A DNA stretch of 64,000 nucleotides from Acidiferrobacteraceae bacterium (GTDB lineage Bacteria > Pseudomonadota > Gammaproteobacteria > Acidiferrobacterales > Sulfurifustaceae), in assembly GCA_021323795.1 (NCBI GenBank), contig JAJPKH010000306.1, positions 11,221 to 75,220 of the forward strand. Reading direction: 5' to 3'. Below are positions 11,354 to 51,643 of the stretch, in pieces (positions within the stretch are counted from its first letter, which is position 1; every line of letters starts with the position of its first letter). The notes beneath the pieces are model-generated. The model made no database searches. It had not been told where the DNA came from and was given only the letters and a program-made list of their open reading frames with translations. Made by a program: the position numbers and the translations under genes.

Positions 11354-11358
11354 TCCGC

Positions 11359-11389: not shown

Positions 11390-11423
11390 TAGCGCGGTGA
11401 TGTGAAATGTGGAAAGAACCGCG

Positions 11424-11774: not shown

Positions 11775-11783
11775 GATACCGCC

Positions 11784-12430: not shown

Positions 12431-12457
12431 ACGCACGTGCCGGCCAAGGAGCGAGCC

Positions 12458-32471: not shown

Positions 32472-35400
32472 TCGCGGCGCTCATTCGTTGGTCGATCGGC
32501 AATCGCCTGTTGGTGCTGCTCGCCGCGGTGCTCATCACCGCCTGGGGCATTTTCAGCATGCTGCGCACGCCGCTTGACGCCATCCCGGATCTCTCGGACG
32601 TGCAAGTGATTATTCGAACGACGTATCCCGGGCAAGCGCCGCAGATCGTCGAGAACCAAATCACCTATCCGCTGACGACCACGATGCTATCGGTGCCCGG
32701 CGTCAAAGCGGTACGCGGTTATTCCTTCTTCGGCGATTCGTTCGTGTACATCTTGTTCGACGACGGCACCGATCTCTACTGGGCGCGCTCGCGCGTGCTC
32801 GAGTATCTGAACCAAGTGGCCGGCCGTTTACCGCGCGGCGCCACCCCGTCGCTCGGTCCGGATGCAACCGGGGTCGGCTGGGTGTACGAGTACGCGTTGG
32901 TGGACCGCACAGGGCAGAACGATCTTGCCCAACTGCGTGCGTTCCAGGATTGGTTTCTGAAATACGAGCTCAAGACCATCCCGAACGTCGCCGAGGTCGC
33001 CACGATCGGTGGCATGGTGAAGCAATACCAAGTACAGGTCGATCCTGACCGCCTGCGCCTCTATCGGTTGTCGCTCGCGAAAGTGACGGGCGCTATCCGG
33101 GCGGCGAACAGCGAGACGGGCGGGTCGGTCTTGGAGCTTGCCGAAGCCGAGTACATGGTACGCGCGAAAGGCTATCTGCAGTCGCTCGACGACTTTCGGC
33201 GCATCCCGCTCGGCGTCTCGCCGACCGGTACACCGATTCTCCTGGGCGATGTGGCACGGGTTCAGTTGGGACCCGAAATGCGCCGCGGCATCGCCGAGCT
33301 CGACGGCGAAGGTGAGGTCGTCGGCGGTGTGATCGTGGTCCGTTCCGGCCAGAACGCGCTCAAGGTCATCGACGCCGTGAAGGCAAAGCTTGAAACACTG
33401 AAAAAAAGCCTGCCGCCGGGCGTTGAGCTGGTTACGGTCTATGATCGCTCGAGCCTCATCAACCGGGCCGTGGAGAACCTCTGGCACAAGTTGGCCGAGG
33501 AATTCATCGTTGTCGCTTTGGTGTGCATGATCTTCCTGCTGCACCTGCCCTCCGCCTTCGTCGCGATTGTTGCGCTGCCGCTCGGCGTGCTCGCGAGCTT
33601 CATCGTCATGCACTATCAGGGCATCAACGCCAACATCATGTCGCTCGGCGGTATCGCGATCGCCATCGGCGCCATGGTCGACGCCGCCATCGTCATGATC
33701 GAGAACGCGCACAAGAAGCTCGAGCAGTGGCGCAAGGACAACGGCGAGCCGGCCGCGGCACAGCACGTGCGCCTCATTGGTGACGCAGCGGTTGAGGTCG
33801 GACCGGCACTCTTCTTTTCGCTGCTCATTATCACGTTGTCGTTCATTCCAGTATTCACGCTGGAAGCCCAGGAAGGGCGGCTGTTCGCGCCGCTGGCCTA
33901 CACCAAGACGTATGCCATGGCGGCGGCGGCCGGACTTTCGGTCACGCTGGTGCCGGTGCTAATGACGTTCTTCATCCGCGGCCATATCCGCGGCGAAGAT
34001 CAGAATCCGCTCAACCGCTGGCTGATCAATGCCTATAAGCCCGCGCTCGCCTGGGTATTGCGTCGCCCGCGCACCACGCTCGCGATGGCGCTCATCGCCA
34101 TTGCCATCACGATCGTACCGCTGCTTCGAATCGGCAGTGAATTCATGCCGCCGCTTGAGGAAGGCGATCTCCTCTACATGCCGACGGCGCTGCCCGGCTT
34201 ATCGGCCTCAAAGGCGACGGAGATACTGCAATTGACCGACCGGCTCATTAAGACGGTGCCGGAAGTGCAGTCCGTCTTCGGCAAGGCCGGACGCGCCGAA
34301 ACGGCAACCGACCCGGCGCCGCTTGAGATGCTGGAAACGACGGTGCAGCTCAAACCGAAAAGCCAATGGCGAGCGGGCATGACGACCGACAAGATCATCG
34401 CTGAACTCGATGCAAGGCTACAGATTCCGGGCATGGCGAACGTCTGGGTGCAGCCGATTCGCAACCGCATCGACATGCTTGCGACCGGCATCAAGAGCCC
34501 GGTCGGCATCAAGATCGCGGGCGCGAATCTGCAGACGCTCGAGAAGCTCGGGCAGGAAGTCGAGCGCGTCGTGAAAACAGTGCCGGGCGCCTCCTCGGTG
34601 TTGGCCGAACGCGTGACCGGCGGGCGCTACATCGATCTCACGATCGACCGCGTGGCGGCGGCACGTTATGGGCTCAATGTCATGGACGTGCAAGACGTGG
34701 TGGCGACCGCGATCGGCGGCGAAAACATCGGGGAGAAGCTCGAGGACCTGGCGCGCTTTCCGATCAACGTGCGCTTTCCGCGCGAGCTGCGTGATTCGGT
34801 GGAGAAGCTTCGCTCGCTCCCGCTCGTCACGGAGAGCGGCGCAACGGTGCCGCTGGGAGCGATTGCGGAGATCAAGACGGTCGATGGCCCGCCGATGATT
34901 AAGAGCGAGAACGCACGTCCGTCGCTTTGGGTGTATGTCGACGTGCGTGACCGCGACTTGGTCGGCTTCGTGCGCGAGGCGCAAAGCAAGGTCGGACAAG
35001 AGGTGCAATTACCCGCGGGCTATTCTGTCGCGTGGTCCGGGCAGTTCGAGTACTTCGAGCGTGCAGCGAAGCGGCTCGCTTGGGTGGTTCCGGCGACCAT
35101 CGGCATTATCTTTTTGCTGCTGTTTCTTGTCTTCAAACGCGTGGAACCGACGCTGCTCATCCTCGGCACGCTGCCGTTCGCGCTCGTGGGGGCCGTATGG
35201 TTTCTCTATCTGCTCGGCCACAACTTCTCCATCGCGAGCGGCGTCGGCGTGATTGCGCTCGCCGGGCTCGCGGCCGAGTTCGGCGTCGTGATGCTGGTGT
35301 ATCTCGATAATTCGATCGGACGCTTCCGCGCAATGGGACGTCTGAAGACGCAAGAGGATGTGCATGAAGCCTTGATCGATGGGGCTGCCCTGCGCGTGCG

Positions 35401-35647
35401 GCCGAAGGCGATGACGGTCGCCGTCATCCTCGCCGGCTTGGTGCCGATCCTGATCGGCACCGGCGCCGGCTCCGAAGCCATGCAACGCATCGCCGCGCCG
35501 ATGGTCGGCGGCATGTTGACCGCACCACTTCTGTCCTTGTTTGTCCTGCCGGCGTGGTATGCCTTGCGCTGGCGCAAGACGATAGCAACGCAATCAGAGG
35601 AGGAACCGCATTTCATCCCGCTTAAAAGCCACGGAGACTCACGATGA
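32468..35647 (+). CDS. cusA: Cu(I)/Ag(I) efflux RND permease CusA
   Basis: 1059 aa from [18 protein letters not shown], with [24 protein letters not shown] overlaps at both ends. Confidence 0.94.
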
Positions 35648-35910
35648 ACACGACCACGACGACATTCGCACCCGTTAGTTGGTGGCAACGACTCGATCGC
35701 CGTTACCGTTTGTTGATCATTGCCGCCCTCGTCGTCGCGGCCGGACTCTGGCTCGGCTGGGAATCGCTCGCGGCACTCGGCGTGCTGCCGCTGTTGCTGT
35801 CGCTCCTTCCTTGCCTAGCCATGTGCGCGCTCGGCCTTTGCATGCGCGGCCGTGACGGGGAGTCGTGCCACAAGACGACGGAGAAGTCCACTGCTAAGGA
35901 GGGAACATGA
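35644..35910 (+). CDS. Small Cys-rich membrane protein (paralog of 20172-20450)
   Basis: [44 protein letters not shown]. Confidence 0.6.
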
Positions 35911-36098
35911 CGCGCCAGGGCGAGCGCTGGATATGGATCGGCGTGGTCGTCCTGTTGCTCGCCATCGGTGCGGTGGTCTTCGCCGGCCCTGCCGGCCAGA
36001 TGCTCCGCCATTGCGCCGAAATGATGGGACAGACGCCAGCCAATGAGGTAGCGACGGTAACGCGCCTTACGGATGTTGGCCCGAGGACGACGCTATGA
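35907..36098 (+). CDS. Small single-TM protein with a C-x-x-M-M motif
   Basis: [46 protein letters not shown]-coupled on both sides. A degraded paralog sits at 20447-20618. Confidence 0.5.
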   Translation: MTRQGERWIWIGVVVLLLAIGAVVFAGPAGQMLRHCAEMMGQTPANEVATVTRLTDVGPRTTL

Positions 36099-36997
36099 CA
36101 CGCACGTTCCGATTCGTCAGCTTCGCGCGCTGGTATTTCGGCCTGCTCGCATTTCCGGCGCTTCTCGTCGCCGCACCGCCGCTGCTCCACCACGTGCATG
36201 GATTGGCCTTCAGTCCGGATGGTGGCCAACTCCTCATCCCCTCCCACTTCGGACTTGCCGTCTACAGCAACGGGCGCTGGACGAAAGCGCCGGGTCCCGC
36301 ACACGACTACATGGGCTTCGCGGCGACCAAGAACTACGCCTATAGCAGCGGCCATCCGGAGCCCGACAGCGGACTCGTCAATCCGTTTGGTCTCATTCGA
36401 AGTCGCGATGGCGGGAAGACGTGGGAGAAGCTCGGCTTCGAGGGTCAGTCGGATTTTCATGTGATGGCGGCGAGCTACCACCGCAATACCGTTTATGTCT
36501 ATAACCCGGGACGCAACGCCGCGATGGAGACGCCTGGCATCTATTACACCGAAGACGACGGCAAGAAGTAGCAACGTGCGGGCGCAAATGGCTTGCAGGG
36601 AAAGGTCGTCGCTCTCGCCGTGCACCCGAGCGATCCACGCCGCGTCGCCGTCGCCACCGACCGCGGCGTGTTTCTCTCAAACGATGCCGGATCGACGTTT
36701 GTGCCGGTCGAGGCAAACAGCCGAGGGTTAACGGTGTTCTTCGATCTCTCGGGCAACGAGTTATGGTTTTCTGGATTTTCGAAGGGCGGAACGCTAAAGC
36801 GCCTTGAGCTTGCGAGTGGGCGAATCCGTGACGTAGCGATTCCCTTCTTAATGACCGGGGATGGCATTCTCTATGTCGCGCAGAATCCTGCGCGACCTGG
36901 CGAGTACGCAGTCGCCACCTTTGCCCGCAGCGTCTATGTCACCAAAGACGGCGGCGCGAGCTGGAAACAAATCGCCGACCGCGGACGCGAACACTGA
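36095..36997 (+). pseudogene. BNR-repeat beta-propeller-like gene interrupted by an in-frame TAG at 36569-36571
   Basis: ORFs 36095-36571 and 36593-36997 are in the same frame. The stop falls where the Trp of an Asp-box is expected: YYTEDDGKK*QRAG versus RSRDGGKTW and TKDGGASW elsewhere in the gene. Confidence 0.7.
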
Positions 36998-37014: not shown

Positions 37015-37710
37015 TCAAAGCGCAAGCACTGGAATAACCACGAAGTAGGCGTTCAGCATATAGAGACCGGAGAGTATCAAAAGTAATCCTCCGACGATCT
37101 CGAATACGTGCTGTCGGTGACCGAGCCACCGTAGGCTTTGCAACCACCCAATCGCCACGGCGCCGATCAGGATCGGCACAGCGCGGCCGATCGCAAAGGC
37201 GAGCGTGAGCGTGGCACCAAATACGGGAGAGCCAATTCCGGCCGCGACGCCTAACACGACGACCAGTGCTGGCGTGCAAAACGGGCAGATAGCAACCGAG
37301 AACGGCACGCCGAGCACAAACGCGCCCCATGCAGTGGCCGCTGGCTTAGCGCGCATCCGTAACGTTGGAAGTGGTAGGCGCAACCACCCCGGCCACGTGA
37401 GACCGAGCACGATGAGAAGCGGTCCTAACACCAATCCCCATCCCCGCCCCATCAAGCGCTGCAACTCGCCGCCGCCAAGTCCAGCGGCGAAGCCGAGCAC
37501 GAGGTGCGTGATCAACATTCCGAGAATAAACATACCGCCGTAGAGGACCGCGCGATTTGTGGCATGGGCCTTGGTCGCATAAGCGAGCGACACGGGTATA
37601 GCGGCGAGTGCGACGGGATTGAAGCTGAAAACGAACCCGAGCAAAAAACCGGCGCCGAGCGAAAGCAACGTCGCTTGCTCGAGGGTTTGCCGCAGCGATT
37701 CGATATCCAA
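37015..37710 (-). CDS. CcdA/DsbD_2-like transmembrane thiol-disulfide transporter
   Basis: 231 aa with six TMs. Has FSFNPVALAAIPV and AICPFCTPALVVVLG. Last gene of the long minus-strand operon. Confidence 0.78.
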   Translation of the reverse strand: MDIESLRQTLEQATLLSLGAGFLLGFVFSFNPVALAAIPVSLAYATKAHATNRAVLYGGMFILGMLITHLVLGFAAGLGGGELQRLMGRGWGLVLGPLLIVLGLTWPGWLRLPLPTLRMRAKPAATAWGAFVLGVPFSVAICPFCTPALVVVLGVAAGIGSPVFGATLTLAFAIGRAVPILIGAVAIGWLQSLRWLGHRQHVFEIVGGLLLILSGLYMLNAYFVVIPVLAL

Positions 37711-37721
37711 GCGTTAGTCCT

Positions 37722-37994
37722 TTAACTGCGGGAAAGACGCGCTTCAAGTGCTTTACGAAGCTTCGCGGCCGTAGGTAATGTCGGGAAAACAAGTTCGCCA
37801 TCGAGTGCGATCGCCGGCGGCGCGGTGACGCCTAGGTCGACGGCATAGTCGATCTCTTTCAGAATATCGACCTCTCGCCAGAGCACTTTCCCCGTACCGA
37901 ACTCCTCGGCGACGGCGCGCAAGCTATCCTTGACGACGGCACATTTACTGCAGCCCTGCGTGAAGAACAACTCGATCCGTATCTTTGTTGCCAT
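37722..37994 (-). CDS. Small thioredoxin-fold protein (glutaredoxin/Thioredoxin_3-like)
   Basis: MATKIRIELFFTQGCSKCAVVKDSL has a CxxC after beta1. About 90 aa. Confidence 0.75.
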   Translation of the reverse strand: MATKIRIELFFTQGCSKCAVVKDSLRAVAEEFGTGKVLWREVDILKEIDYAVDLGVTAPPAIALDGELVFPTLPTAAKLRKALEARLSRS

Positions 37995-37996
37995 CA

Positions 37997-38506
37997 CTAA
38001 CCGGTGCGGTTCTTCCGCGGCTTGGTCATGGTATTTTCGAGTGCCGCTAGGATCGGGCAGGCATCGAGCGGCTTCGATGTGTCGTTACAGATCCGTATCA
38101 GCTCGTTCAGCACAGCGGACATCGTTTGAAATGTCCGAATCTTCGTTTCGAGCGCGAGCATCTTTTGGACCGCGACGGTACGAACGTCCCGGCAGCACGC
38201 GGCATTTTTCACCTTGAGCGCGAGCAGCTCGCGGATCTCGCGCAGCGAGAAGCCGCACTCCTGCGCGTGTTTAATGAACCGTATGCGCGGCAGCACGTCG
38301 TTGCTGTATAGCCGGTAACCGGCCGCACTTTTCTTCGTCGGTGCTAGCAGGCGTTCTTCTTCATAGTAACGCAGCGTGTCACGGCTTATCTCGGAAAGCT
38401 CGGCGATCTTACCAATCGTCAACAGAGGCTCCGGTCCTTGCGGACGGTCCTTTAGCAACCGTAGAGGCCGCGATCTCGACGCTCGCCGTTCGATGTTGGC
38501 TTTCAT
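37997..38506 (-). CDS. MerR-family metal-responsive regulator with a MerR-like Cys pattern
   Basis: HTH LTIGKIAELSEISRDTLRYYEEERLL. Cys in KNAACCRD and CNDTSKPLDACPIL (C-x9-CP, as in MerR). ATGA overlap with merP. Confidence 0.85.
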   Translation of the reverse strand: MKANIERRASRSRPLRLLKDRPQGPEPLLTIGKIAELSEISRDTLRYYEEERLLAPTKKSAAGYRLYSNDVLPRIRFIKHAQECGFSLREIRELLALKVKNAACCRDVRTVAVQKMLALETKIRTFQTMSAVLNELIRICNDTSKPLDACPILAALENTMTKPRKNRTG

Positions 38507-38787
38507 GGCTTGAGCGTGGACGGGAAGCCCGCGTCGGCGGTCGCTTTGCGAAGCGCATCGGTGTTTGTTTTTGCGTCGTCAAAGGTGACCGTCGCTTCCC
38601 TCTTCTCGAAGCTCACATCGGCTTTGCTAACGCCGTCAACGCGCGTCAACGCCTTTCGCACCGTCAGTGGACACACCTGGCATTGCATACCGGGCACCGA
38701 GAGCGTCACCGTCTTGGTGGCTGCGGTTACCGGTACTGCCACAAGGACTAGGACGGCGAGGATGGCGAAATTGGACACCTGCTTCAC
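38503..38787 (-). CDS. merP: MerP-like periplasmic metal-binding protein (second copy)
   Basis: GTG start preceded by GGAGAAGG, a signal peptide, and VPGMQCQVCPLTVRKAL. Confidence 0.87.
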   Translation of the reverse strand: MKQVSNFAILAVLVLVAVPVTAATKTVTLSVPGMQCQVCPLTVRKALTRVDGVSKADVSFEKREATVTFDDAKTNTDALRKATADAGFPSTLKP

Positions 38788-38797
38788 AAACCTTCTC

Positions 38798-39163
38798 CTA
38801 ATAAAAGAGTGGGGCGAGATACGGAAATATCGCCGCAACCGCGAGCAGCGTGGCGACGACCCAAAACAGAATTCGGTAAGTCGATCGCGTCGCCGGAATC
38901 GCGCACACGGCGGCCGGCTCGCAGGCGTCGAGTGGTCGAAAGATCGGTCGATACGCAAAGAAGAGCGCAACGACCGCGATACCAATAAAAATCGGCTGAT
39001 ACGGAGTGAGCCTAGTTAACAAACCCATCCAGACACCGCCGATGCCAACCGACACCAGCGCAAGGGGCGCGACACAACACGCGGAGGCCAAAATAGCGGC
39101 GAGGCCGCCACTGGCGAGTGCCGTGCCGCCCGTGCTCGTGGGTTTCTTTACCGTGGCGCTCAT
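38798..39163 (-). CDS. merT: MerT-like transporter (second copy)
   Basis: [36 protein letters not shown]. Roughly 60 percent identical by eye to the copy at 11424-11774. Confidence 0.92.
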   Translation of the reverse strand: MSATVKKPTSTGGTALASGGLAAILASACCVAPLALVSVGIGGVWMGLLTRLTPYQPIFIGIAVVALFFAYRPIFRPLDACEPAAVCAIPATRSTYRILFWVVATLLAVAAIFPYLAPLFY

Positions 39164-39213
39164 GCCTTTACGGACTCGTGCTATTAAGGATAGTTCCCGA
39201 CGTAAGTGTGGGA

Positions 39214-39558
39214 TTACGGCCGGCCCTTGAGCACCTCGATCGACTTAGCGACCGGCGTCCCCTTTTCCGTCACGTACGTCACGGCAACCACGCTGCCACG
39301 AAGTGTCGGCAGGTAGGCATAGTCATTTCCTTTTTTAATCAGCGTTCCTTTCGGTACGCGGATCGTCGTCGACTCGGCTTTACCGCCACTGCCTTTGCGC
39401 TCCAACACCAAATCGCCTTCGCACCCGCCCGGCTTAAATTCGCATAGAGTCATTTTGGTGCTGACGACGGTTCCTTCGATTTTTTCTTGTGCTGCTGCAC
39501 TGATTGTTTGAAGTCCTATGATGGCCGCAAACGCCAATGAAACAACTAAGCTACGCAT
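39214..39558 (-). CDS. Small secreted beta-rich protein with one Cys pair, unknown family
   Basis: Signal peptide [24 protein letters not shown], then IEGTVVSTKMTLCEFKPGGCEGDLVL. The start overlaps the ABC ATPase stop. Confidence 0.55.
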   Translation of the reverse strand: MRSLVVSLAFAAIIGLQTISAAAQEKIEGTVVSTKMTLCEFKPGGCEGDLVLERKGSGGKAESTTIRVPKGTLIKKGNDYAYLPTLRGSVVAVTYVTEKGTPVAKSIEVLKGRP

Positions 39559-40303
39559 GTCGACTTCCTCCTAGGATTTCCGAAGACGCTTGCTCCTTTT
39601 CCCAAGCCACCGCCTGCAGTCGCCCGTCTTTGATGGGCAAGACACGATCAGCCATTTGCGCAAGCGCCTCCGCGTGCGTGACAACGATCACCGTCCGTTC
39701 TCGGGAAATTTCCTTTAACAGCTCATAAATCATCTGCCCGGTTTTGGAGTCGAGGTTGCCGGTCGGTTCGTCGGCAAGAATGAGTGGCGGATTATTGGCG
39801 AGCGCGCGGGCGATCGCCACCCGCTGCTGCTCACCGCCCGAGAGCTCGCGCGGGCGATGGGTCAGTCGCTGTCGTAAGCCAACGCGATCGAGCAGTGCGA
39901 GCGCGCGTGCCCGGCGCTCGGCGCGGACAATGCCGTTGAACTCCATCGGCAGCATGACGTTCTCGAGCGCGCTCAAATTAGGAATGAGATTAAAGCTCTG
40001 AAAGACAAAACCGACGGTCTGCCGGCGATAGCGCATGAGCCCGCTTTCCGGCAGCTCTGTCAACGACTGACCGGCCACCATCACCTCGCCGCTCGAAGGT
40101 CGATCCATCGCGCCAATGATGTGAAGGAGCGAGGACTTGCCGCTACCGCTCACGCCGACGATGGCGACCATCCCGTGCTCGGCGAGCGTGACGTCGACAC
40201 CGTCGAGCGCTTTAATGATCTCGTCGCCCTTACGATAGGTCTTACTGACGCGATGGAGCACGACGAGACGGTCCCCCGTTTTTGTGACAGTCGAGTTACT
40301 CAC
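39551..40303 (-). CDS. ABC transporter ATP-binding protein, MacB/LolD-like
   Basis: Walker [11 protein letters not shown]-loop [10 protein letters not shown], signature [15 protein letters not shown], Walker [13 protein letters not shown]. Confidence 0.93.
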
Positions 40304-41555
40304 GGCGAATCGCCTCCATCGGTGACAGCAGAATAATCTGGCGGATGCTCCAGACGCTGCCGGCCGCTGCCGCGATGACGCAGGTGCCAGTCAACAGCGC
40401 GAGCGTCGCCGGCGCAATACTCGAAGACAGCGAGAGCGCGGTGGCGAGCGTGTCCTTGTACTGCGCGGGCAAGAATGGTGCGATGCCAACACCGAACGTA
40501 TGTTGTGCGATCGGTCCGCCCCAGGCGGCAAAGAGCAGCAAGCCGAGGAAGGCGCCTAACACGCAGAGTGCGAGCGCTTCCGTGAGAAAGCTCACAACAA
40601 TACCGTCATTCGACGCGCCGAGGGCCTTGAGCGTGCCGATCTCCCAGGCGCGCTCGCGCACGACCAAGAGCATGACAAAGAACACGACGATGATCGTGAG
40701 AACGGCCGCCAGCACGATGCCACCGCGCGCTAAGCGCAGCACCGCCCGGGTGGCGGTATTCTGAAACTCCGCGACATGCGTCGGTGCAATGATGTCGGCA
40801 ACCTCGCCGAGCATCGCTTTCAGTTTCTGCTCGACCGCTGGCAGATATTCTGCTGAGTCGGCTTTCACAAAGAGCCAGGAGATGCCGCGCGGAAACCCGT
40901 AGATGTCCCGGAACGTATCAAGCGGGATAAAGAGCTGCATATCGCCAAAGACATAACCGCTCGCGTAAATGCCAACGACCTTAAGCGTTGCCGGCGGGCG
41001 ATCAAGCGCGAAGATAACGGGATGTGTGCGCTTAAGGTCAAGATTCAGTATCGCGTGGCCGACGTTCTCGACTGTGATGCCCGCCCACTTCGCCACGCCC
41101 TGTCCGATCACAGCGACCTTCTGGCCACGGTCGGCGTCGGTTAAGTCGCGTCCTGCGATGATCTTCGGGGTTCCCGCTTCGCCGTGCGATTCGAGGCGTT
41201 TAGTATCTCCGGGCGTTACGCCGACGATCATGGCGAAGTTGTGTCCGGTCGTGGGTGTCATCGCGAGGAGATAGGGCTCCACCTTGGCGACGTGCTCGAC
41301 CGCGCGGACCTGGTTGAACGACTCATGCGGCAGCAGATTTTCGTTGCCGACCATGTTCACGTGCCCCATGGCACCCCGTGCGCGCAGTTGCAGCGTGTTG
41401 TCGACGTTCTGTTGCAGGAGGCGCGTTTGCTGCGCGACCGCCGTGCCGATCGCTTGCATTACGAGCAGCAGAAAAAACGGTATGCCGATCAGAAGCGCGA
41501 CCAGAATGAGTCGCGGTTTGCTCCGTAGGAGATTGCGTAAGCCGAGACGAATCAT
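40296..41555 (-). CDS. FtsX/MacB-type ABC permease with a large periplasmic domain (permease 2)
   Basis: 419 aa: TM1, then about 230 aa periplasmic, then three TMs. RERAWEIGTLKALGAS motif. Confidence 0.88.
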   Translation of the reverse strand: MIRLGLRNLLRSKPRLILVALLIGIPFFLLLVMQAIGTAVAQQTRLLQQNVDNTLQLRARGAMGHVNMVGNENLLPHESFNQVRAVEHVAKVEPYLLAMTPTTGHNFAMIVGVTPGDTKRLESHGEAGTPKIIAGRDLTDADRGQKVAVIGQGVAKWAGITVENVGHAILNLDLKRTHPVIFALDRPPATLKVVGIYASGYVFGDMQLFIPLDTFRDIYGFPRGISWLFVKADSAEYLPAVEQKLKAMLGEVADIIAPTHVAEFQNTATRAVLRLARGGIVLAAVLTIIVVFFVMLLVVRERAWEIGTLKALGASNDGIVVSFLTEALALCVLGAFLGLLLFAAWGGPIAQHTFGVGIAPFLPAQYKDTLATALSLSSSIAPATLALLTGTCVIAAAAGSVWSIRQIILLSPMEAIRRE

Positions 41556-41560
41556 GTCGG

Positions 41561-42763
41561 TTAGCCCCTCCGCATTGCTTCAACCGGACTCAGCGTCACG
41601 CCACGAACCACGGGGTACAGACTGCCTAAGGCGGCGAAGACCACGGCGCCCAAGAGAATGAGCGCGACGACGGTGCCATCGAACGCAATGGAAAATCCGA
41701 ACGCTTGGCTCAACACGTGCGCGAGGAGCGCCGCGACGACGATAGCCCCTACGCTGCCGAGTCCGCTCAACGTTCCGGCCTCCGCAAGAAACTGAACCAC
41801 AATCTCGCGATTGGAGGCGCCAATGGCTTTAAGCGTGCCGATCTCGCGCACGCGCTCGCGTGTACTGAGAATCATCACGGCGACAATGAGCACCGCGCCG
41901 ATCGCAAAGAGTAGAATCGCGGCGTACAGGCTTGCTACCGCTAACGTGCCAAGCGTCGTTCGCGCAGTCGATACGGCCTCCGGCGTCGTGACGACATCGG
42001 CTTCGGGCAGCGCCGCTTTGAGATCCGCGAGCACGGCCTCGACGTTGGCGACCGAGTCAACGGTTAGAAAGATCTTTGAGAGTTTGGCACCGGGACGAAA
42101 CGTGACGCGGAACGCTTCAATCGGCACGAACACATGGTTATCGCCGAAGTCGTTTCCCGTCGCATAAACGCCGACCACGTTAAACGGCTGGCCTTCCAGG
42201 ATGATTTGCTTGCCCGCGAGGTCCGCCCCCGTCGGCGTATTGATAGCTAGACGCTGCTTGGCATAAAGCTGCCCGACTACCGCCACCCGGGAAGCGCGGT
42301 CCGCTTCAGAGAGCGCGCGACCGGCGATGAGATGGGCGCTTTCGTAGTCAACCTCGCCGATTGCGCGCATGGCGGATCCGGCCTTCAGCCCAATGACCAT
42401 GGCATAGGCGTTTTTCTTCGACGGATCGATCTGCGGTTGATTCACGTATTCCTCCATCCGGACGATGTGGTGCGCGTTCGGCACTTGGCGGATCTTCGCG
42501 AATGTGCCGGTCGAGAAGTGCCCCTCGCCGAGCGGCTTATCGCCACCGAACCCACCCGTGCCGAAGGCACCCGCTTCACGCAACTCAATCAGAGTGCGCA
42601 CTTTGCCCTCCATCGCGGCGATCTGCTCGCGGCTGGTACGGGTCGCCTGGAGTAGCAGCGCAAGAAAACCAATGACAAGCGCCAACAGCGACACGACGAC
42701 GAGCGCGCGCGTCACGCTGCGAAAGGGGTTGCGGAATCCTCGCCAGAGGGCGCCCGTCATCAC
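41561..42763 (-). CDS. FtsX/MacB-type ABC permease with a large periplasmic domain (permease 1)
   Basis: 400 aa with the same architecture. RERVREIGTLKAIGAS motif. Confidence 0.88.
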   Translation of the reverse strand: MMTGALWRGFRNPFRSVTRALVVVSLLALVIGFLALLLQATRTSREQIAAMEGKVRTLIELREAGAFGTGGFGGDKPLGEGHFSTGTFAKIRQVPNAHHIVRMEEYVNQPQIDPSKKNAYAMVIGLKAGSAMRAIGEVDYESAHLIAGRALSEADRASRVAVVGQLYAKQRLAINTPTGADLAGKQIILEGQPFNVVGVYATGNDFGDNHVFVPIEAFRVTFRPGAKLSKIFLTVDSVANVEAVLADLKAALPEADVVTTPEAVSTARTTLGTLAVASLYAAILLFAIGAVLIVAVMILSTRERVREIGTLKAIGASNREIVVQFLAEAGTLSGLGSVGAIVVAALLAHVLSQAFGFSIAFDGTVVALILLGAVVFAALGSLYPVVRGVTLSPVEAMRRG

Positions 42764-42786
42764 GCATCGTCTCCGTATGAGTCAGC

Positions 42787-45240
42787 CTACACCTTGGGAC
42801 TAGGTCCAAGGTCAAGCGGTGGCCGCCCGACACTCGTCACCGCCCCAAAGAAGAGCCCGGCCCGTCCCCAAAGCGAGTTGATAAAGATGGCCGTTACACT
42901 CAGCGCCATGGCGGCCATGGCCCAAACGGGATAGACGAGGCCGGTTGCGGCGAGGGGGATGCCGATCCCATTGAACGAGAATGCCAGCACCACGTTTTGC
43001 AGCATCTTGCGGTAGCTGCGCCGGCTGATGTCGCGGGCGGCGAGTAGCGCATCGAGGCGCGTGTTCAAAATAATGACGTCGGCCGACTCGATCGCGATCG
43101 AGGTGCCGCTGCCCATGGCAACGCCGACGTCCGCTTGCATCAAGGCCGGGGCGTCATTTACTCCATCGCCCACCATCACGACCTTGGTCGTTTTTTGGAG
43201 TTCCCGGATGATCTCCGCCTTGCGATCAGGCAGCACGCCGGCGTAGACCTCATCGATGCCCGCCATGGCGGCAAAGCGACGGGCCGCCCGCTCGTTATCG
43301 CCGGTCAGTAGCACCGTCCGGATCTCGGCGCGCTGAAGGGCCGCGACGGTCTCCGCCGCATCGGCGCGCAAGCGATCGCCGAGCGCGATGAGACCGAGAG
43401 CGGTGCGCGCCTTGGCGACGGCGATGACCGTACGTCCCTGGCTCTCGAGCTCATCGACCTGCGCGAGAAGCGACGAAATATTCACGCCGCGATCGACCAG
43501 AAAACTCGGTCGCCCCACGAGCACTTCAATGCCGTCGATACGGGCAACGACACCGAGGCCCGGCACCGCTTCAAAGTCCTCGACATCGGGCGGTGTGAGG
43601 CGACGCTGGAAGGCGGCGTTCAGTACGGCTTGCGCGAGCGGATGCTCCGAGCTCGCTTCCGCCGCCGCCGCAATCGCAAGCAGCTCGTCGTCGTTTGAGC
43701 CGACTGAAAAAATTTCTTGTACCAAGGGCTGCCCTTCGGTGAGCGTGCCGGTTTTATCGAACACGACGCAATTCACGAGACGAAGTCCTTGGAACGCCTC
43801 GCCGGTACGCATCAAGATGCCGCGCTCGGCCGCTTCGCCGGCGCCGCGCACGATCGAGAGCGGCGCGGAAATACCGACGGCGCAGGGATAGCCCATAACG
43901 AGGACACTCAATCCGGCGAAAACGGCACGCTCGAGATTCATCTCACCCATTACGAGGAACGAACCGAGCAGCCACCCAACCACAGCAACCGCGGCGATGA
44001 TCAAGACGGTCGGGGTGTATACCTGCAGCACCCGGTCTACTAAGTGGAGCAATCCGGGCTTTAGCGCGCGGGCGTCTTCGACGTGACGGATTACTTGCTG
44101 CAAGAAGGTCTCGGCACCCACGGCCGTGACTTCGACCAGCAGCGTGCCAGTCCCGTTGATGGAACCGCCGATAATGGCATCACCCGTTTTCTTTTCGATC
44201 GGCAGCGGCTCGCCGGTCATGAGCGACTCGTTGACTGCCGAGCGACCATCGATGACTTCGCCATCGACCGGAATGCGCTCACCCGGGCGGATGCGTACGC
44301 GATCACCGAGCCGGACTTGATCGAGCGCGAGCTCGACTTCCCGGTTGTTACGCACGACGCGCGCGAGATCCGGCTGCAGGTCGAGCAGCTTCTTTACCGC
44401 TTGCGAGCTTCGCGTCTTTACGATGAGTGAGAGCCACTCGGAGAAAATATGATACGTCGCGACCATCACGGCGACGGCAAAAAATGGCGCGGTGGGATAG
44501 CCAGTCGGTTTAAGGATTAAACCAATGAGACCGCCCGCGATGCCGGCAAAAGCGCCGACCTCCAGCAACACGTGCTGATTGAGAATGCCACGGCGCAGCG
44601 CTTGGAGCGCCATAAAGAGGATGTGCTGCCCGACGCCGGCAGCGACAGCGAGGGCCAGCACGCCGGTTAACCAGGGCGTGGCATCAGCGAGCCAACTCAA
44701 AGAGCGCGCGTAATAGAGGACAGCACCGAGCGCGACAAGTCCTGCGGTGGCGCTCAACGCGGTCACGAGCCCGCGCGGCTTTAGCACCGCGAGGAGAAAG
44801 ACCACTAGGCTCAAGAAAACAACGCTGGCTAGGAGCGTCGACCAGAACCCGACGGGGTTTGCGACCAGCGCGATCGCCGCGAGACTCGCCGCCACGGCGG
44901 CAACGAACCGATAGCTTTCGCGGACGAGCGCCGCCTCTTCTTCATCGAAGGGACGAAGTTTTCGGGGATCGGAAATGGTGTAGCCAATGTCCTTGAGCGT
45001 CTGCAGCAGTATCTCGGCACGCGTTCGGTTTGGGTCGTATTCAATTAACGCTTGTTCGTGCGTGAGACTGACCGCAACGTTTTCAACGCCGGGATGTTTG
45101 CGCAGCGCCTTCTCGATCGTGCCGGTACAGAGCGAACAGTGAAGTCCGCCGATCCGGGCGCGGATGCGTCGGCGATCCGGTCGGTTCGACGGCTCCTCGC
45201 TCCAAACGGTCGGGCATGGTAGGACGCTAGCGTGACTCAT
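42787..45240 (-). CDS. P1B-type heavy-metal ATPase with a non-canonical YPC transmembrane motif
   Basis: One HMA domain (GGLHCSLCTGTIEKAL), TGEPLP, MGYPCAVGISAPL where CPC is expected, [16 protein letters not shown], and GDGVNDAPAL. Confidence 0.92.
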   Translation of the reverse strand: MSHASVLPCPTVWSEEPSNRPDRRRIRARIGGLHCSLCTGTIEKALRKHPGVENVAVSLTHEQALIEYDPNRTRAEILLQTLKDIGYTISDPRKLRPFDEEEAALVRESYRFVAAVAASLAAIALVANPVGFWSTLLASVVFLSLVVFLLAVLKPRGLVTALSATAGLVALGAVLYYARSLSWLADATPWLTGVLALAVAAGVGQHILFMALQALRRGILNQHVLLEVGAFAGIAGGLIGLILKPTGYPTAPFFAVAVMVATYHIFSEWLSLIVKTRSSQAVKKLLDLQPDLARVVRNNREVELALDQVRLGDRVRIRPGERIPVDGEVIDGRSAVNESLMTGEPLPIEKKTGDAIIGGSINGTGTLLVEVTAVGAETFLQQVIRHVEDARALKPGLLHLVDRVLQVYTPTVLIIAAVAVVGWLLGSFLVMGEMNLERAVFAGLSVLVMGYPCAVGISAPLSIVRGAGEAAERGILMRTGEAFQGLRLVNCVVFDKTGTLTEGQPLVQEIFSVGSNDDELLAIAAAAEASSEHPLAQAVLNAAFQRRLTPPDVEDFEAVPGLGVVARIDGIEVLVGRPSFLVDRGVNISSLLAQVDELESQGRTVIAVAKARTALGLIALGDRLRADAAETVAALQRAEIRTVLLTGDNERAARRFAAMAGIDEVYAGVLPDRKAEIIRELQKTTKVVMVGDGVNDAPALMQADVGVAMGSGTSIAIESADVIILNTRLDALLAARDISRRSYRKMLQNVVLAFSFNGIGIPLAATGLVYPVWAMAAMALSVTAIFINSLWGRAGLFFGAVTSVGRPPLDLGPSPKV

Positions 45241-45272
45241 AATGTGCCTCCATATAAATGGTGGGCGTCGCG

Positions 45273-45500
45273 TTACGCGTTTGTCGCAGCAAGCGGCGTC
45301 ACTTGGTATCCCGCCTTTTCGATAACCGCAACTAACGTCTCTTGCGAGGTTGCATGCGGATCGAATTGAATCCGCGCTAGGCGCTCAGTGAAAGTCACGT
45401 CCACCGCTTTGACGCCGTCTTGACGGGCGAGCAATGACTGGATCACCGCGGCGCAGCCGCCGCAGTGCATGCCCTCGATTCGTAACCGTGCGCTTTTCAT
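45273..45500 (-). CDS. CopZ-like HMA metallochaperone
   Basis: MKSARLRIEGMHCGGCAAVIQSLL. AAGGAG lies 7 nt upstream of the ATG at 45500. Confidence 0.85.
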   Translation of the reverse strand: MKSARLRIEGMHCGGCAAVIQSLLARQDGVKAVDVTFTERLARIQFDPHATSQETLVAVIEKAGYQVTPLAATNA

Positions 45501-45527
45501 ACCTCGCTCCTTTACCGTCATGGCAAA

Positions 45528-45558
45528 GCCTAAGCCCTGGACCATACTCCCGGGTCAA
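45528..45558 (-). promoter_or_regulatory. Candidate MerR-type promoter for the long operon: -35 TTGACC, 19-20 bp spacer with an imperfect dyad, -10 TTAGGC/TAGGCT
   Basis: The minus strand reads TTGACCCGGGAGTATGGTCCAGGGCTTAGGCT. CCCGGGA and TCCAGGG form a 6/7 inverted repeat. Confidence 0.3.
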
Positions 45559-45673
45559 GCGCGTAGATCGGTGCGGTAGACGTACGCAGTTCGCGACGTT
45601 GTGCACCGAGACGGACTACCGGATGAGTAAGGCTAAACCACCGTGCGACGGGTTTGGCGAGACAGAGACTAGT

Positions 45674-45892
45674 TCAAGCGCTGTTGTTGAACTGCGGGCA
45701 AGGAACGGAGCCATAGGAACAGAAGACACAACAATCGCCAGGCTTCGGACGGAGCAACTGCCCGCACGCTTCGCACTCATAATAGAACTGACAAGCATCG
45801 AGCGACATCGTCTCGGTCTTGGCGTTGCCGCAAGATGGACAGGTAAGCGTCGATTCATCGCGTCCACTTGCCGGGAGCCATGGAGCGAGCAC
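45674..45892 (-). CDS. GDCCVxC-domain small Cys-rich protein
   Basis: LTCPSCGNAKTETMSLDACQFYYECEACGQLLRPKPGDCCVFCSYGSVPCP. The start is uncertain (GTG at 45892 chosen; the ORF extends to 46009). Confidence 0.78.
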   Translation of the reverse strand: MLAPWLPASGRDESTLTCPSCGNAKTETMSLDACQFYYECEACGQLLRPKPGDCCVFCSYGSVPCPQFNNSA

Positions 45893-46122
45893 GAATACAC
45901 CGTGCTGGGCACGATGTTGCTGACGGCCATCGTTCTCGTTCTTGTCGGGATGAAACTGTTTGTGGTTGCGCCGCATCACTAATAACCTCGTGCAGAACTG
46001 AAGGCGCAACGCTGCGCTGGAATTACATTTTCGTAATCTGCCACCATAAGGCTATTCGCCCGGAACTAAGCCGACCCGCTCTGCTCCTAAAAGGGACCCA
46101 TCCTTCAAAAAGGAGCAAGGAC

Positions 46123-46506
46123 ATGCCCCAGCACGATATGCAGGAATGCATCGACAACTGTCTCGCGTGTTATCGCAGCTGCCAAGAAACGGCGATGAAC
46201 CATTGCCTGGAAAAAGGCGGAAAGTTTGTGGAACCGGAGCACTTTCGGCTGATGTTGAGCTGCGCGGAGATCTGTCGGACGTCGGCGGACTTCATGTTGA
46301 GCGGATCCCCATTGCACGCGCAAACCTGTGCGGTTTGTGCCGGAGTGTGCGAAGCCTGCGCGGAAAGCTGCGAGCGGCTCGGCGAAATGGACGAGTGCGC
46401 GCGCATCTGCCGCGTCTGCGCCGACAGCTGCCGTGAGATGGCAGGTGCCATTCACCTAATGAGTGGCCAGCAGACGACCGGGACGGTTGCGCGACCAACG
46501 ATGTAA
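46123..46506 (+). CDS. Cys-rich four-helix-bundle copper-binding protein (DUF326/Csp-like), with no signal peptide
   Basis: MPQHDMQECIDNCLACYRSCQETAMNHC...CAEICRTSADFM...CAVCAGVCEACAESCERL...CARICRVCADSCREM. AAAGGAG RBS. Confidence 0.85.
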   Translation: MPQHDMQECIDNCLACYRSCQETAMNHCLEKGGKFVEPEHFRLMLSCAEICRTSADFMLSGSPLHAQTCAVCAGVCEACAESCERLGEMDECARICRVCADSCREMAGAIHLMSGQQTTGTVARPTM

Positions 46507-49252: not shown

Positions 49253-51643
49253 TCAGGCGCCCGCGGCGGCCGGCGCCGCCGTCATGCGGTGAATACCCGC
49301 GAGGCGCGTGCGCTTGAGCAGCAATGCGTTGACGGCAACGAGCGCCGAGCTGCCCGACATCGCCAACGCCGCGACTTCCGGACTGATGGTGAACGGATAG
49401 AAAACGCCGGCGGCCATGGGAAACGCCACGACGTTGTAGGCCACGGCCCAAAAAAGATTTTGATGCATCTTGCGCAGCGTCGCACGCGACAGTTCGACCG
49501 CGCCGACAACGTCGAAGGGATCGCTCTTCATCAGAACGACGTCGGCACTTTCCATGGCGACGTCCGTGCCGGCGCCGATCGCGAAGCCGACGTCCGCCTG
49601 CGTCAGCGCGGGCGCGTCGTTGATGCCGTCGCCGACCATGCCGACTTTCTTGCCGCTCGCTTGCAGCTCCTTCACCTTCGCCGCCTTCTGGCCGGGCAGC
49701 ACGTCGGCCAGCACGATGTCGATGCCGATCTCGCCGGCAATGCGCTCGGCGGTGGCGCGGTTGTCGCCGGTCAGCATCGCCACCTGCACGCCGCGCGCTT
49801 TGAGCGCCTTGACCGCGGCGATTGCGGACGGGCGCAGCGCGTCGGCGATGGCGATCAGGCCAATGAGGCGACCGTCGCGCGCGAGGTGCACGACGGTACG
49901 GCCGCCGCCTTGCAGGCGCTGCGCCTCGGCGCCGAGTTCGCCGAGGGCGATTTTCTGCTCGTCCATCAGGCGGCGGTTCCCAAGATATACCGTCGTCCCG
50001 CCGACCTTCGCCCGTGCGCCACGGCCTTCGAGATTCTCGAAACCGCCTGGTTTCTCAAGACGCAGGTCCTTCGCGCGCCGCGCGATCGCTTGTGCAAGGG
50101 GATGATCCGAGCCTTGATCGACCGCGGCGGCGAGCGCGAGGACATTGTCCTGTGTTGCACCGGCCGCCGCACGGACTTCCACGACCTCCGGCTGCCCGAG
50201 TGTCAGCGTGCCGGTCTTGTCGAAGATGATCACATCGAGCTTGGTCGCGTCCTCCAGGGCGGACGCGTTCTTGAAAAGAATGCCATTCATGGCGCCAAGA
50301 CCGGTGCCGACCATCACCGCCATCGGCGTCGCGAGACCGAGCGCGTCCGGGCACGCGATGACGAATACCGTGATCGTCAGCGTGAGCGCAAAGAGCAGCG
50401 GCTGACCGATCCACCAGAACCAGACCGCGAACGTGAGCAGACCGATCACCACCGCAATCAGCACCAGCCACTGCGACGCGCGATCGGCGAGGAGTTGCGC
50501 CGGGGCTTTGGAGTTCTGCGCCTCCTGGACCAATTTCACGATCTGTGCCAACGCCGTGTCGGCGCCCACCTTGGTCGCGCGGTAGCGGAACGTGCCGCTC
50601 TTATTAATGGTGGCGCCGATCACCGTATCGCCGGGGTGCTTGTTCACGGGCATCGATTCGCCCGTCAGCATCGATTCATCGACCGCCGACTCGCCCTCCA
50701 GCACCTCTCCGTCCACCGGAATCTTGTTGCCCGGACGGATAACAACCGTATCGCCCGCCAAGACATCCGCCGTCGGAACTTCCACTTCCTTGCCGCCGCG
50801 CAGCACGGTCGCCATCGGCGGCGCGAGATCGAGTAGCGCGCGGATCGCCGCCGAGGCGCCGGCGCGGGCGCGCATCTCCAGCCAGTGGCCGAGCAGAATG
50901 AACACGAGCAGCACCGCCACCGCTTCGTAAAACTGCGCGCCTTCAAAAACGAACGTCGCGCCGATACTGAAGATATAACCGGTGCCGACGGACAGAACGA
51001 CCAAAACGGCCATATTCAGTACGCCGTTCTTAAGCGCGCGGTAGGCGGCGACCACGAACGGCCACGCGGGATAGACCACCGCCACCGTCGCCAGCAGAAA
51101 CAGCCAGACGTCGAGCGGCAAACCAAACGGCGGCCCGGGGGGCGTAAACATTCCACCCATGGGTGAATAAATAAAAATGGGAACGGTAAAGACAAGCGCG
51201 ACCCAAAAGCGGTTGCGCATGTCGCGCACCATTTCTTGCGTGTCCATCCCCGCGCCGTGGCCCATTTCGTGGGCCATCGCATCGTGGGCAACGGGTGGCG
51301 CCGCCTGCGCGGGCGCTTCGTGTTTCGCGTGGAGACCCTCTTTGCGGGACGGGATGCCGCGCGCATGAACCACCGCGGCCACGCCTTCTCCGGGCGGATC
51401 TTCGGGCTTGCACATGTGCGCCGGCAGCCGCGCACCGGTGCAGTGATGGCCGCACTCCCGTACGCGCGCCTTGATGGCTTCGAGATCGATAACGCGGTCG
51501 TCATACTCGACGGTGGCGCTCGCCGTCGCATAGTCAACGTCGGCGCGGCGCACGCCGGGCAAACGGCGCAACTGCTTCTCCACGCCCAAGTCACTCAGCG
51601 GCGTGATCAGTCCGCCAACGTCTATCGTCACCGTACGCATCAT
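49253..51643 (-). CDS. CopB-like P1B-type ATPase with a His/Met-rich N-terminus, a degenerate HMA domain and a CPD transmembrane motif
   Basis: N-terminal ferredoxin-like domain lacks CxxC ([11 protein letters not shown]). Also [51 protein letters not shown] and [10 protein letters not shown]. Confidence 0.92.

Follow-up and report, generated by a model that had tools for sequence, protein, structure and literature searches.

What might a gene array do that joins merT and merP to a metal pump, an ABC transporter and two thiol proteins, and that encodes neither MerA nor MerB? Such an array occupies positions 37015-45500 on the minus strand of the 64-kb stretch analysed here (hereafter the window), which belongs to an Acidiferrobacteraceae bacterium (contig JAJPKH010000306.1). 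In the standard account, bacterial mercury resistance consists of uptake followed by reduction, not of efflux. We propose, with chances that we put at about even, that the array is a two-promoter regulon under a MerR-family regulator, composed of four modules, and that it handles a soft, thiophilic metal, Hg(II) being the likeliest. The initial annotation of the locus had already suggested a thiophilic-metal role, which is also how the comparative data are best read, with Hg(II) as the probable metal. Genome comparisons portray the cluster as a local mosaic of four recurrent and widespread modules; hundreds of bacterial species have these building blocks, often as part of a mercury-resistance operon.

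Open reading frame (ORF) calls combined with Pfam and NCBIfam searches give 11 genes in the array (Table 1), one more than the ten first counted from a list that itself named eleven; every family on that list was found on the minus strand, and independent gene calls on the source contig, a 276-kb metagenome contig that other assemblies contain as well, agree. From the HMA gene to the DsbD-like gene, the successive gaps measure 32, ~24, 5, -8, -8, 50, 10, -4, ~2 and 11 nucleotides (nt), neighbours overlapping by 4-8 nt or lying at most 50 nt apart. The regulator gene is one likely exception. Its start is probably the TTG at 38422, because a GGAG lies 6 nt upstream, the product has 141 amino acids (aa) and its N-terminus matches that of the family; the 141-aa form is also the one listed for the JGI and NCBI members of the regulator cluster. 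This start would leave a gap of 80 nt after merP, so that the close spacing originally described holds for most junctions and probably fails at this one. As had been noted, neither merA nor merB was found in the array, and a GDCCVxC-domain gene on the same strand ends 173 nt upstream of the HMA start. Lying upstream of the first promoter, the latter gene belongs to a unit of its own and is associated with the array only loosely; its homologues occur near the ATPase in 10 of the 80 related loci introduced below. A megablast search of the 8.5-kb region against plasmids returned only ATPase fragments of 70-75% identity and no near-identical annotated record.

How many transcription units are there? 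The whole window was searched for TTGAC-N19/20-TAnnnT with an internal dyad. Three MerR-type promoter-like sites were recovered against 0.1 expected, a number reached in none of 200 simulated sequences: P1, 26 nt upstream of the HMA start; P2, ~21 nt upstream of the first permease gene; and a textbook merO at 11359. P1 and P2 have in common the -35 TTGACC, the -10 TAGGCT, a 20-bp spacer and a CTTGGA..TCCAAG-type dyad. At P2, the TAG stop codon of the ATPase gene doubles as part of the -10 hexamer (42784-42789). Because P2 stands in front of the ABC genes, the array is two co-regulated units and not the one plain operon that had been assumed, and the regulator gene sits in the second of them. 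An internal promoter could have signified independent units with unrelated induction, but P1 and P2 are of one operator class, and co-induction would therefore be expected. This class, CTTGGAGT-N4-ACTCCAAG with a 20-bp spacer, also precedes HMA/ATPase genes in many related loci, and it is found as well before units made of the regulator, thioredoxin-like (Trx-like) and DsbD-like genes. A terminator scan gave 12 sites against 10.5 expected, none above chance, and a sigma-70 promoter scan found no sites. The right arm of the P2 operator encodes the last residues of the pump (PKV); the variable part of the pump's clade is the C-terminal tail after SVGRP, and a 79%-identical homologue (P0002) ends similarly (...SSKV).

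Does this arrangement recur? In a scan of one genome per species, 364 stretches encode a relative of the pump, and the best 80 were analysed with their flanking ORFs clustered by family; locus counts refer to these 80. Module 1 consists of the HMA gene and the ATPase, which carries YPC where copper and zinc pumps carry CPC; module 2 of two FtsX permeases, an ABC ATPase and a 114-aa periplasmic protein; module 3 of the MerR-like regulator, the Trx-like and the DsbD-like protein; and module 4 of merTP. They turn up both singly and in combination, in Proteobacteria and in a few further phyla. Cupriavidus sp. CP313 (L008) has HMA-ATPase-FtsX-FtsX-ABC-p117-R-Trx-DsbD, which is the window order minus merTP (R denotes a MerR-like regulator; p107, p114, p116 and p117 denote proteins of the 114-aa family), and the same order without merTP is found in a Burkholderiales (L013) and an Acidiferrobacterales (L017) metagenome-assembled genome (MAG). 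L011 has ABC-p116-R-Trx-DsbD and no ATPase. On another contig, the genes for a MerR-HMA fusion and a YPC pump run divergently from an ABC-p107 unit, and merT, merE, merC and merB lie nearby. Cupriavidus plasmids carry ATPase-HMA-R-Trx-DsbD-MFS beside a Tn-type mer operon, and a Sulfuricaulis MAG carries Trx-ATPase-DsbD-R beside merRTPBA. Because the order recurs elsewhere and the promoter sites exceed expectation, the arrangement is not due to chance; the lack of conserved synteny that would have pointed to a chance juxtaposition was not observed.

Among the 80 loci, a MerR-family gene is present in 72, any DsbD-family gene in 63, an HMA gene alongside the ATPase in 55, an MFS transporter in 26, a canonical MerA with C-terminal SCCAG in 23, MerT in 22, FtsX or ABC in 16, a multicopper oxidase in 10 and an RND pump in 5; MerA or MerT is encoded in 30.

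The link with mercury goes beyond these counts. MerT of the array has a CC pair in its first transmembrane helix (TM1) and a second Cys pair, and MerP has a signal peptide and a GMQCQVC motif. By the marks of a mer operon, the array has genuine MerT and MerP and lacks both MerA, with its redox-active CxxxxC and C-terminal Cys pair, and a MerR acting at merO (TCCGTAC-N4-GTACGGA). Operators of merO type (TCCGTA..TACGGA) stand in front of R-HMA-DsbD-ATPase operons and of FtsX-FtsX-ABC operons in more than 12 loci, the latter operons being those of L010, L052, L060, L067 and L084. In L030, a related MAG, a single array comprises merR and merO followed by merT-merP-x-oxidoreductase-HMA-ATPase-Trx-DsbD, and in L075 a merO-like site is followed by merA-HMA-DsbD-ATPase. 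In four alphaproteobacterial loci, merTP joined the R-Trx-DsbD unit elsewhere (R-X-D-T-P); because the insertion position differs, the association arose more than once.

A second mer-like locus lies 25 kb from the array. Its merR comes close to the MerR model (148.3; cut-off 150.85), and its last gene encodes an oxidoreductase of 456 aa of the flavin adenine dinucleotide (FAD) disulfide type (motif GTCALRGCDLKK). This protein scores 314 with the MerA model (cut-off 454), scores equally as MerA and as glutathione reductase, ends in ...DLGYML without a C-terminal CC pair and is 73% identical to its L030 counterpart. It is the sole MerA homologue in the window, which holds no canonical MerA. Members of its family directly follow canonical merA in L023 and L083 and lie within ~2 kb of it in L073 and L082. 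The description of the system as reductase-less thus stands for the array, and for canonical MerA in the window, which does hold this merR-merT-merP-oxidoreductase locus.

Table 1. Positions of the array genes, their promoters, the upstream neighbour and the second mer-like locus in the window (model cut-offs in parentheses)
Feature	Position	Strand	Remarks
GDCCVxC-domain protein	45674-45976	-	NCBIfam NF041374 95.7 (40)
P1 promoter/operator	45527-45558	-	TTGACC-N20-TAGGCT; imperfect dyad CCCGGGA/TCCAGGG
HMA metallochaperone	45273-45500	-	75 aa; GMHCGGC; Pfam HMA 59.7 bits
P1B-type ATPase	42787-45240	-	817 aa; GYPCAVGISAP; N-terminal HMA domain (GLHCSLC)
P2 promoter/operator	42784-42815	-	TTGACC-TTGGACCTAGTCCCAAGGTG-TAGGCT; perfect 7-bp dyad ACCTTGG/CCAAGGT
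Permease 1, FtsX + MacB_PCD	41561-42763	-	Pfam FtsX 62.7, MacB_PCD 60.8
Permease 2, FtsX/MacB_PCD type VII ABC	40296-41555	-	Pfam
ABC ATPase	39551-40303	-	LolD/MacB nucleotide-binding domain closest; Pfam ABC_tran
114-aa secreted protein	39214-39558	-	no Pfam or NCBIfam family
merT	38798-39163	-	NCBIfam equivalog 157.7 (150); Pfam MerT 131.8
merP	38503-38787	-	NCBIfam equivalog 131.4 (92.55)
MerR-family regulator	37997-38506	-	probable true start TTG 38422, 141 aa
Thioredoxin_3 protein	37722-37994	-	Pfam Thioredoxin_3 29.4 (24.8)
DsbD_TM protein	37015-37710	-	Pfam DsbD_TM 46 (27.1)
Second mer-like locus	10958-13807		merR (on -), merO, merT, merP, AhpD-like ORF, MerA-related oxidoreductase
canonical merO	11359		second locus
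merT	11409-11774		second locus
merP	11784-12062		second locus
AhpD-like ORF	within 11882-12430		second locus
oxidoreductase	12437-13807		second locus

What does the pump move? Its transmembrane motifs are YPC, FN and MALSV where Cu(I) pumps have CPC, YN and MxxSS; in CopA, Cu(I) ligands include the leading Cys of CPC and the Tyr of YN. The motifs DKTGT and GDGVNDAP are intact, and HP is present as well. The YPC motif, which had been noticed in the single protein, is conserved in all 120 closest database homologues and in all 80 related loci, and the pump relatives also keep FN (73/81), MAxSV (79/81) and the N-terminal HCxxC (74/81). Their alignment suggests that YPC pumps form a large, coherent and derived clade with an altered transmembrane metal site. 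By overall sequence the ATPase belongs with the P1B-1 pumps, and it lacks their CopA transmembrane signature. It passes TIGR01525 (555.7; cut-off 346), and its best solved relatives are 7SI3 (a vertebrate P-type Cu(+) transporter), OsHMA4, AfCopA and LpCopA (E 1e-117 to 1e-126), the match to the ZntA structure being weaker (E 1e-94). It is not a P1B-2 pump: the ZntA models give 408 (cut-off 1005) and 356 (cut-off 1240), its TM5 and TM6 residues are of the Cu type (N and M..S), and the signature of P1B-2 pumps, a Lys in TM5 and DxG in TM6, is missing. In E. coli, the metagenomic YPC pump CopAL6 made cells accumulate more Cu and resist it less (PMC11082258), and YPC was remarked on for Sulfolobus CopA (PMC4541151); neither is tied to the window clade, and besides these two no mention of YPC pumps was found in the literature. 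The HMA protein encoded next to the ATPase is a cytoplasmic metallochaperone with no signal peptide, and its CopZ- and MerP-like NCBIfam matches are all below cut-off.

Which metal is sensed? The regulator passes no cut-off, scoring 119.6 with the ZntR model (cut-off 143), 105 with MerR (150.85) and 91 with CueR (147), and 107.3 (cut-off 168) and 70.9 (cut-off 261) with further ZntR and MerR models, respectively; an orthologue scores 129.3 with ZntR. It has a CC pair at the position of ZntR C79 and MerR C82, a metal-ligand cysteine, and thus Cys, not Ser, at this position, followed by a C-x9-C loop. The MerR-like Cys pattern read from the sequence earlier holds in that the MerR Cys positions (C82, C117, C126) align, the loop being one residue longer and an extra Cys being present. 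Of the ZntR ligands C79, C114, C115, H119 and C124, C115 and H119 are replaced by N and K. Orthologues in 25 loci, a class nearest ZntR, keep the Cys motif, and the regulators of at least 65 loci carry the Cys typical of divalent-metal sensors. In loci with merO-like operators, the regulators have the MerR spacing C...C-x8-C and MerR as their best model (122-130 bits, just below cut-off). MerR regulators fused to a C-terminal HMA domain occur upstream of or divergent from YPC pumps in L010 (5996-6775), L054 (9527-10207), L063 (2059-2748) and L078 (9533-10198).

The last two genes of the array had been taken for a periplasm-directed thiol-redox pair, a description that now looks doubtful. Because the Trx-like protein, with its GCSKC motif (CSKC at residues 16-19), has no signal peptide and starts directly with the fold, it is cytoplasmic; its gene lies after the regulator gene and before the DsbD-like gene in most loci of the window regulator's class. 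The DsbD-like protein has CPFC in TM4 and no cysteine in TM1. All 28 orthologues have CPxCTP in TM4, and all 28 have Val or Ala at the TM1 position. A PDB search with the single sequence gave noise alone, and the family profile was needed for a match: it aligns with Thermus thermophilus CcdA (5VKV; E 2e-10, positions 17-220), with Val at the position of the TM1 Cys. The protein thus has the DsbD_TM fold and lacks the arrangement of one Cys in TM1 plus one in TM4 that goes with CcdA/DsbD membership. Its nearest named NCBIfam entry is ArsG (57.5; cut-off 200), an efflux permease (PMC9144182). Across the loci, the DsbD-family cysteine pair comes in three layouts, split between TM1 and TM4, both in TM4, or both in TM1; the form with CPC in TM1 has no TM4 Cys, and the canonical form with one Cys per helix also exists in related loci. 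In L063 (5280-6596) and L076 (12427-13712), the gene of the YPC pump is directly followed by three others, for a secreted HMA protein, a DsbD-like protein whose CPC lies in TM1 and a second, cytoplasmic HMA protein; such trios would by analogy resemble the logic of MerP-MerT-NmerA. Mercury and copper resistance are listed among the reported roles of the DsbD family in a review of the LysE superfamily (PMC4608589), and in actinomycete mer loci the annotation of mercury transporter has been given to CcdA- and TrxA-type proteins (PMC12195606). Because the TM1 Cys is absent, the CPxC invariant and the paralogues HMA-flanked, we favour a dithiol metal relay over a reductant shuttle as the likely function of the pair.

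Permease 1 has no cysteines and is closest to MacB among solved structures (E 8e-17). It is ~31-33% identical to permease 2, and the two would form a heterodimeric ABC transporter of type VII (MacB/LolC-like), to judge from sequence comparison. The ABC ATPase, whose gene overlaps both neighbours by 8 nt, scores 241.6 with LolD (cut-off 307.75) and 227.9 with MacB; the permeases are far below cut-off with the lolCE models (35-42; cut-off 362) and with MacB (44.6 and 25; cut-off 966). The set therefore has the two-permeases-plus-ATPase architecture of LolCDE and falls outside the LolC, LolE and LolD equivalogs. Nor does it belong to MacAB-TolC, as the nucleotide-binding domain is a separate gene and the array has no membrane-fusion protein gene. 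In its presumed periplasmic region, permease 2 carries a conserved G-x-MGHVNM (residues 61-68) and invariant M99, M109, H124 and H178, which could constitute a thioether/imidazole metal site. The 114-aa protein has a signal peptide and a conserved hairpin motif, C-x-FKPGGCEG, with a C-x6-C Cys pair kept in 55 of 73 full-length family members; this pair fits a metal site or a structural disulfide alike. An OB-fold beta-barrel is predicted for it (AF2 pLDDT 82.4), with weak fold matches, CusF/SilF at the top (E 4.5e-3, TM score 0.41-0.53) and OB folds of SSB as well. Its family is small, with 126 representative clusters among 1.84 billion proteins, and its 26 close relatives always adjoin ABC genes where the context is known. 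Its gene overlaps that of the ABC ATPase by 8 nt, and it is likely the periplasmic partner of the transporter. A reading of the ABC module as a defence system was discarded, a PADLOC scan having given generic ABC/LolE-TM matches alone.

These elements could be combined as follows. The regulator, through its CC pair and C-x9-C loop, would sense the metal in the cytoplasm and activate P1, which would drive the HMA chaperone and the YPC-ATPase, and P2, which would drive the ABC transporter, the 114-aa protein, merT, merP, the regulator itself and the Trx-like and DsbD-like proteins. MerP and MerT would capture periplasmic Hg(II). The chaperone would pass the metal to the ATPase, to be pumped out of the cytoplasm. 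The DsbD-fold protein, with its mid-membrane CPxC dithiol, and the CxxC of the Trx-like protein would provide a second Cys-to-Cys metal relay across the inner membrane, analogous to MerP-MerT-NmerA. Finally, the heterodimeric MacB/LolC-type transporter and its OB-fold partner might clear metal, or metal-damaged material, from the periplasmic face; this role is the weakest part of the model. A bolder version, which we advance tentatively and on the doubtful side, is that YPC pumps are P1B-ATPases dedicated to the export of Hg(II). They would belong to a mercury efflux branch of the mer regulon that either works without reduction or assists it, that hundreds of species possess and that the mer literature does not recognise. 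Its other members would be Trx-like or HMA chaperones, dithiol permeases of the DsbD fold and, in a subset of genomes, a type VII ABC transporter with its periplasmic OB-fold partner.

Several observations weigh against assigning the proposed regulon to mercury. The metal is one that we infer from neighbouring genes. The window regulator and its operator are closer to ZntR and PzntA than to MerR and merO, and some loci, a minority, rely on CueR-like regulators that lack the first cysteine. By overall sequence the backbone of the ATPase is of the Cu(I) type; it passes the Cu-type model TIGR01511 (453.8; cut-off 397), and the effect of CopAL6, a YPC pump not tied to this clade, was on Cu (PMC11082258). 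The Met/His motifs of permease 2 are more typical of Cu(I)/Ag(I) sites. The direction assumed for the pump is open to argument as well, P1B importers having been claimed in the case of HmtA (PMC8456098), and it would seem pointless to take metal up through MerTP and expel it through a P1B pump unless there is a cytoplasmic sink, the window having no canonical MerA. The array encodes no membrane-fusion/adaptor or outer-membrane partner for the ABC module, and the two conserved cysteines of the 114-aa protein could form a structural disulfide.

Part of this evidence would suit the same regulon serving Cd(II), Zn(II) or Pb(II), with merTP a passenger brought in by recombination in a metal-resistance island. 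The best model and the loop length of the regulator are those of ZntR, and the P1/P2 operator (CTTGGAGT..ACTCCAAG, 20-bp spacer) resembles the ZntR operator of the zntA promoter. In Mesorhizobium metallidurans, an adjacent gene pair described as 'cytochrome c biogenesis' and 'thioredoxin-related' was induced ~3-fold by Cd and not by Zn, and a CcdA-like gene downstream of cadA by both metals (PMC3668242); these genes are at most putative orthologues of those in the array. Yet the pump has no CPC, is not of the P1B-2 type and scores lower with ZntA than with CopA models; the regulator lacks the C115 and H119 of ZntR; mer genes are the commonest non-module neighbours, czc/RND genes being rare; and merTP was recruited independently in other lineages. 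We consider this alternative unlikely, with a share of probability large enough to be taken seriously. A system for Cu(I), Ag(I) or Au(I), in which a CopZ-CopA-like pump would work with a CusF-like periplasmic protein and an ABC exporter, could account for the Cu-type model and closest solved relatives of the pump, the weak CusF/SilF match of the 114-aa protein, the Met/His motifs of permease 2, the CueR-like regulators of some loci and the presence in the window of CusA, a Csp-family protein and a CopA-type pump. It is improbable in our view, given that the whole clade has replaced both the first Cys of CPC and the Tyr of YN, that the regulators so widely carry the divalent-sensor Cys and that multicopper oxidases accompany the pump three times less often than mer genes (10/80 vs 30/80). 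Both sets of rival metals nevertheless retain genuine support.

The remaining alternatives concern function and not the metal. As reductant donors, the Trx-like and CcdA-like proteins could keep the cysteines of MerP and of the 114-aa protein reduced in the periplasm. The DsbD-like protein is a true CcdA homologue, CcdA systems use a cytoplasmic thioredoxin-like donor, canonical two-Cys DsbD-like genes are found in 16 loci and TlpA/AhpC-like periplasmic proteins in 7, and genes for an FAD disulfide oxidoreductase and an AhpD-like protein travel with the module, in L030 and in the second mer locus of the window, which weighs towards a shuttle of this kind. We nevertheless judge it quite unlikely, more so than a Cd/Zn/Pb regulon, since the orthologues without exception have both cysteines on TM4 and none on TM1, no periplasmic thioredoxin-like acceptor is encoded in the array, HMA proteins flank the DsbD-like paralogues on either side of the membrane, and the nearest named family is an efflux permease. 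That independent resistance modules were merely thrown together in a horizontally acquired island, with no joint function, is the least credible account and in our opinion highly improbable: modules do shuffle freely between loci, an internal promoter exists and the island is rich in metal genes, but module order repeats in different bacterial orders, genes overlap by 4-8 nt, both promoters are of one operator class with the sole matching regulator in the second unit, and modules co-occur far more than any other flanking gene family.

How far does the proposed regulon resemble known systems? With the classical mer operon of Tn501/Tn21 (merR-merT-merP-(merC)-merA-merD-merE), it shares genuine merT and merP genes, an activator of the MerR family in which three Cys positions align, and an operator with a dyad in an over-long spacer, and relatives of the array are often physically, and sometimes operonically, linked to real mer operons. 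It differs in lacking MerA and MerB, in adding a P1B pump, an ABC transporter and Trx-like and DsbD-like proteins, and in its CC + C-x9-C regulator and operator class with a 20-bp spacer; the merO spacer of Tn501 is 19 bp. The mer gene list recognised in a 2012 survey has no ATPase, ABC, Trx-like or DsbD-like function (PMC3466566), and in the literature we found no P-type ATPase, Trx-like or DsbD-like function described in proteobacterial mer systems. Actinobacterial mer loci resemble the array, at the level of annotation, in combining DsbD-family and thioredoxin-fold genes in a mercury context (PMC12195606); they belong to a distant lineage, and one of their listed thioredoxin-like proteins is annotated as a precursor, whereas that of the array is cytoplasmic.

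Like the CopZ-CopA to CusF to CusCBA route (and golTSB), the array has a cytoplasmic HMA chaperone and a P1B-1-like pump, a MerR-family activator and a small periplasmic protein with a predicted OB fold adjoining a transporter that would clear the periplasm. Unlike that route, it has YPC/FN/MAxSV for CPC/YN/MxxSS, regulator cysteines of the divalent type and, instead of an RND pump, a type VII ABC heterodimer without membrane-fusion or outer-membrane partner; CusF uses His, Met and Trp, whereas the periplasmic protein of the array has a Cys pair. The DsbD-like protein is linked to CcdA/DsbD (5VKV) by the homologous six-helix fold, aligned over the full length by profile, and by a cytoplasmic thioredoxin-fold partner gene, and it departs from them in having its two cysteines one helical turn apart on TM4 and none on TM1, in the absence of a periplasmic acceptor, and in its setting in a metal operon with HMA-flanked paralogues. 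Two FtsX/MacB_PCD permeases with a separate LolD-like ATPase recall LolCDE and MacAB-TolC, MacB being the closest solved relative; models far below cut-off, the lack of a MacA or TolC gene, a metal-sensor promoter and a 90-residue OB-fold partner in place of LolA set the array apart. ZntR/ZntA is matched in the regulator's best model, loop length and operator shape, and not in the ZntR score, in C115/H119 or in the pump, which is not a P1B-2 Zn/Cd/Pb ATPase.

No protein of the array falls outside the known superfamilies, and its regulation follows MerR-family logic. The initial annotation knew of no characterised system of this composition and we found no paper describing one, nor any description of the YPC clade, the 114-aa family or the whole system. 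What emerges is a large conserved P1B clade whose metal site has changed; its members are associated with MerR-like switches and DsbD-fold proteins, and time and again they form part of mer operons. If Hg(II) is indeed moved, an efflux or relay arm would be added to mercury detoxification, genomes negative for merA and positive for merTP would be read differently in environmental surveys, and there would be a natural case of a CcdA-type electron carrier converted to metal transport by the shift of both cysteines to a single helix. Should the metal prove to be Cd or Cu instead, the operator class, the 114-aa family and the pump clade would still be uncharacterised entities.

In some genomes, the system could possess an outer-membrane leg in the form of a Phenol_MetA_deg-type barrel. 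Genes for such barrels accompany secreted HMA proteins in L006 (6108-8944) and L011 (203-2418), and that of L006 lies behind a MerR-type operator of the P1/P2 class (TTGACATGGAGTCAACTCCAGGTTGTAGGTT). Modules of this type, with periplasmic HMA proteins, are rare (3 loci) and have no clear counterpart in the window, where a single weak match was found (27765-28376, E 4.5e-4).

Other genes around the array make the window a dense metal-resistance island, because ZntA-like, CadR, CusA and CopA-type genes are all present. A ZntA/CadA-type P1B-2 ATPase gene (7917-10343, minus strand) is divergent from a regulator gene (10408-10893) whose product passes the CadR-PbrR equivalog (174.5; cut-off 151.45), CusA is encoded at 32324-35647 and a CopA-type pump at 49253-51643. 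Directly after cusA lie two small overlapping ORFs (35644-36098, plus strand) for hydrophobic proteins of 88 and 63 aa, the first with several cysteines; they are called as genes on the source contig and belong to no family. They are followed by an F510_1955-family glycosylhydrolase-like gene (36095-36997, plus strand) split by an in-frame TAG (36569-36571), both halves matching one model. This stop is a nonsense mutation, a pseudogene mark or an assembly error; selenocysteine was dismissed, the codon being TAG and not TGA. Beyond the other end of the array, a Cys-rich protein of the Csp/DUF326 four-helix-bundle type (46123-46506, plus strand) is encoded divergently from the GDCCVxC gene, and Csp-like genes adjoin the YPC pump in L031 and L058.

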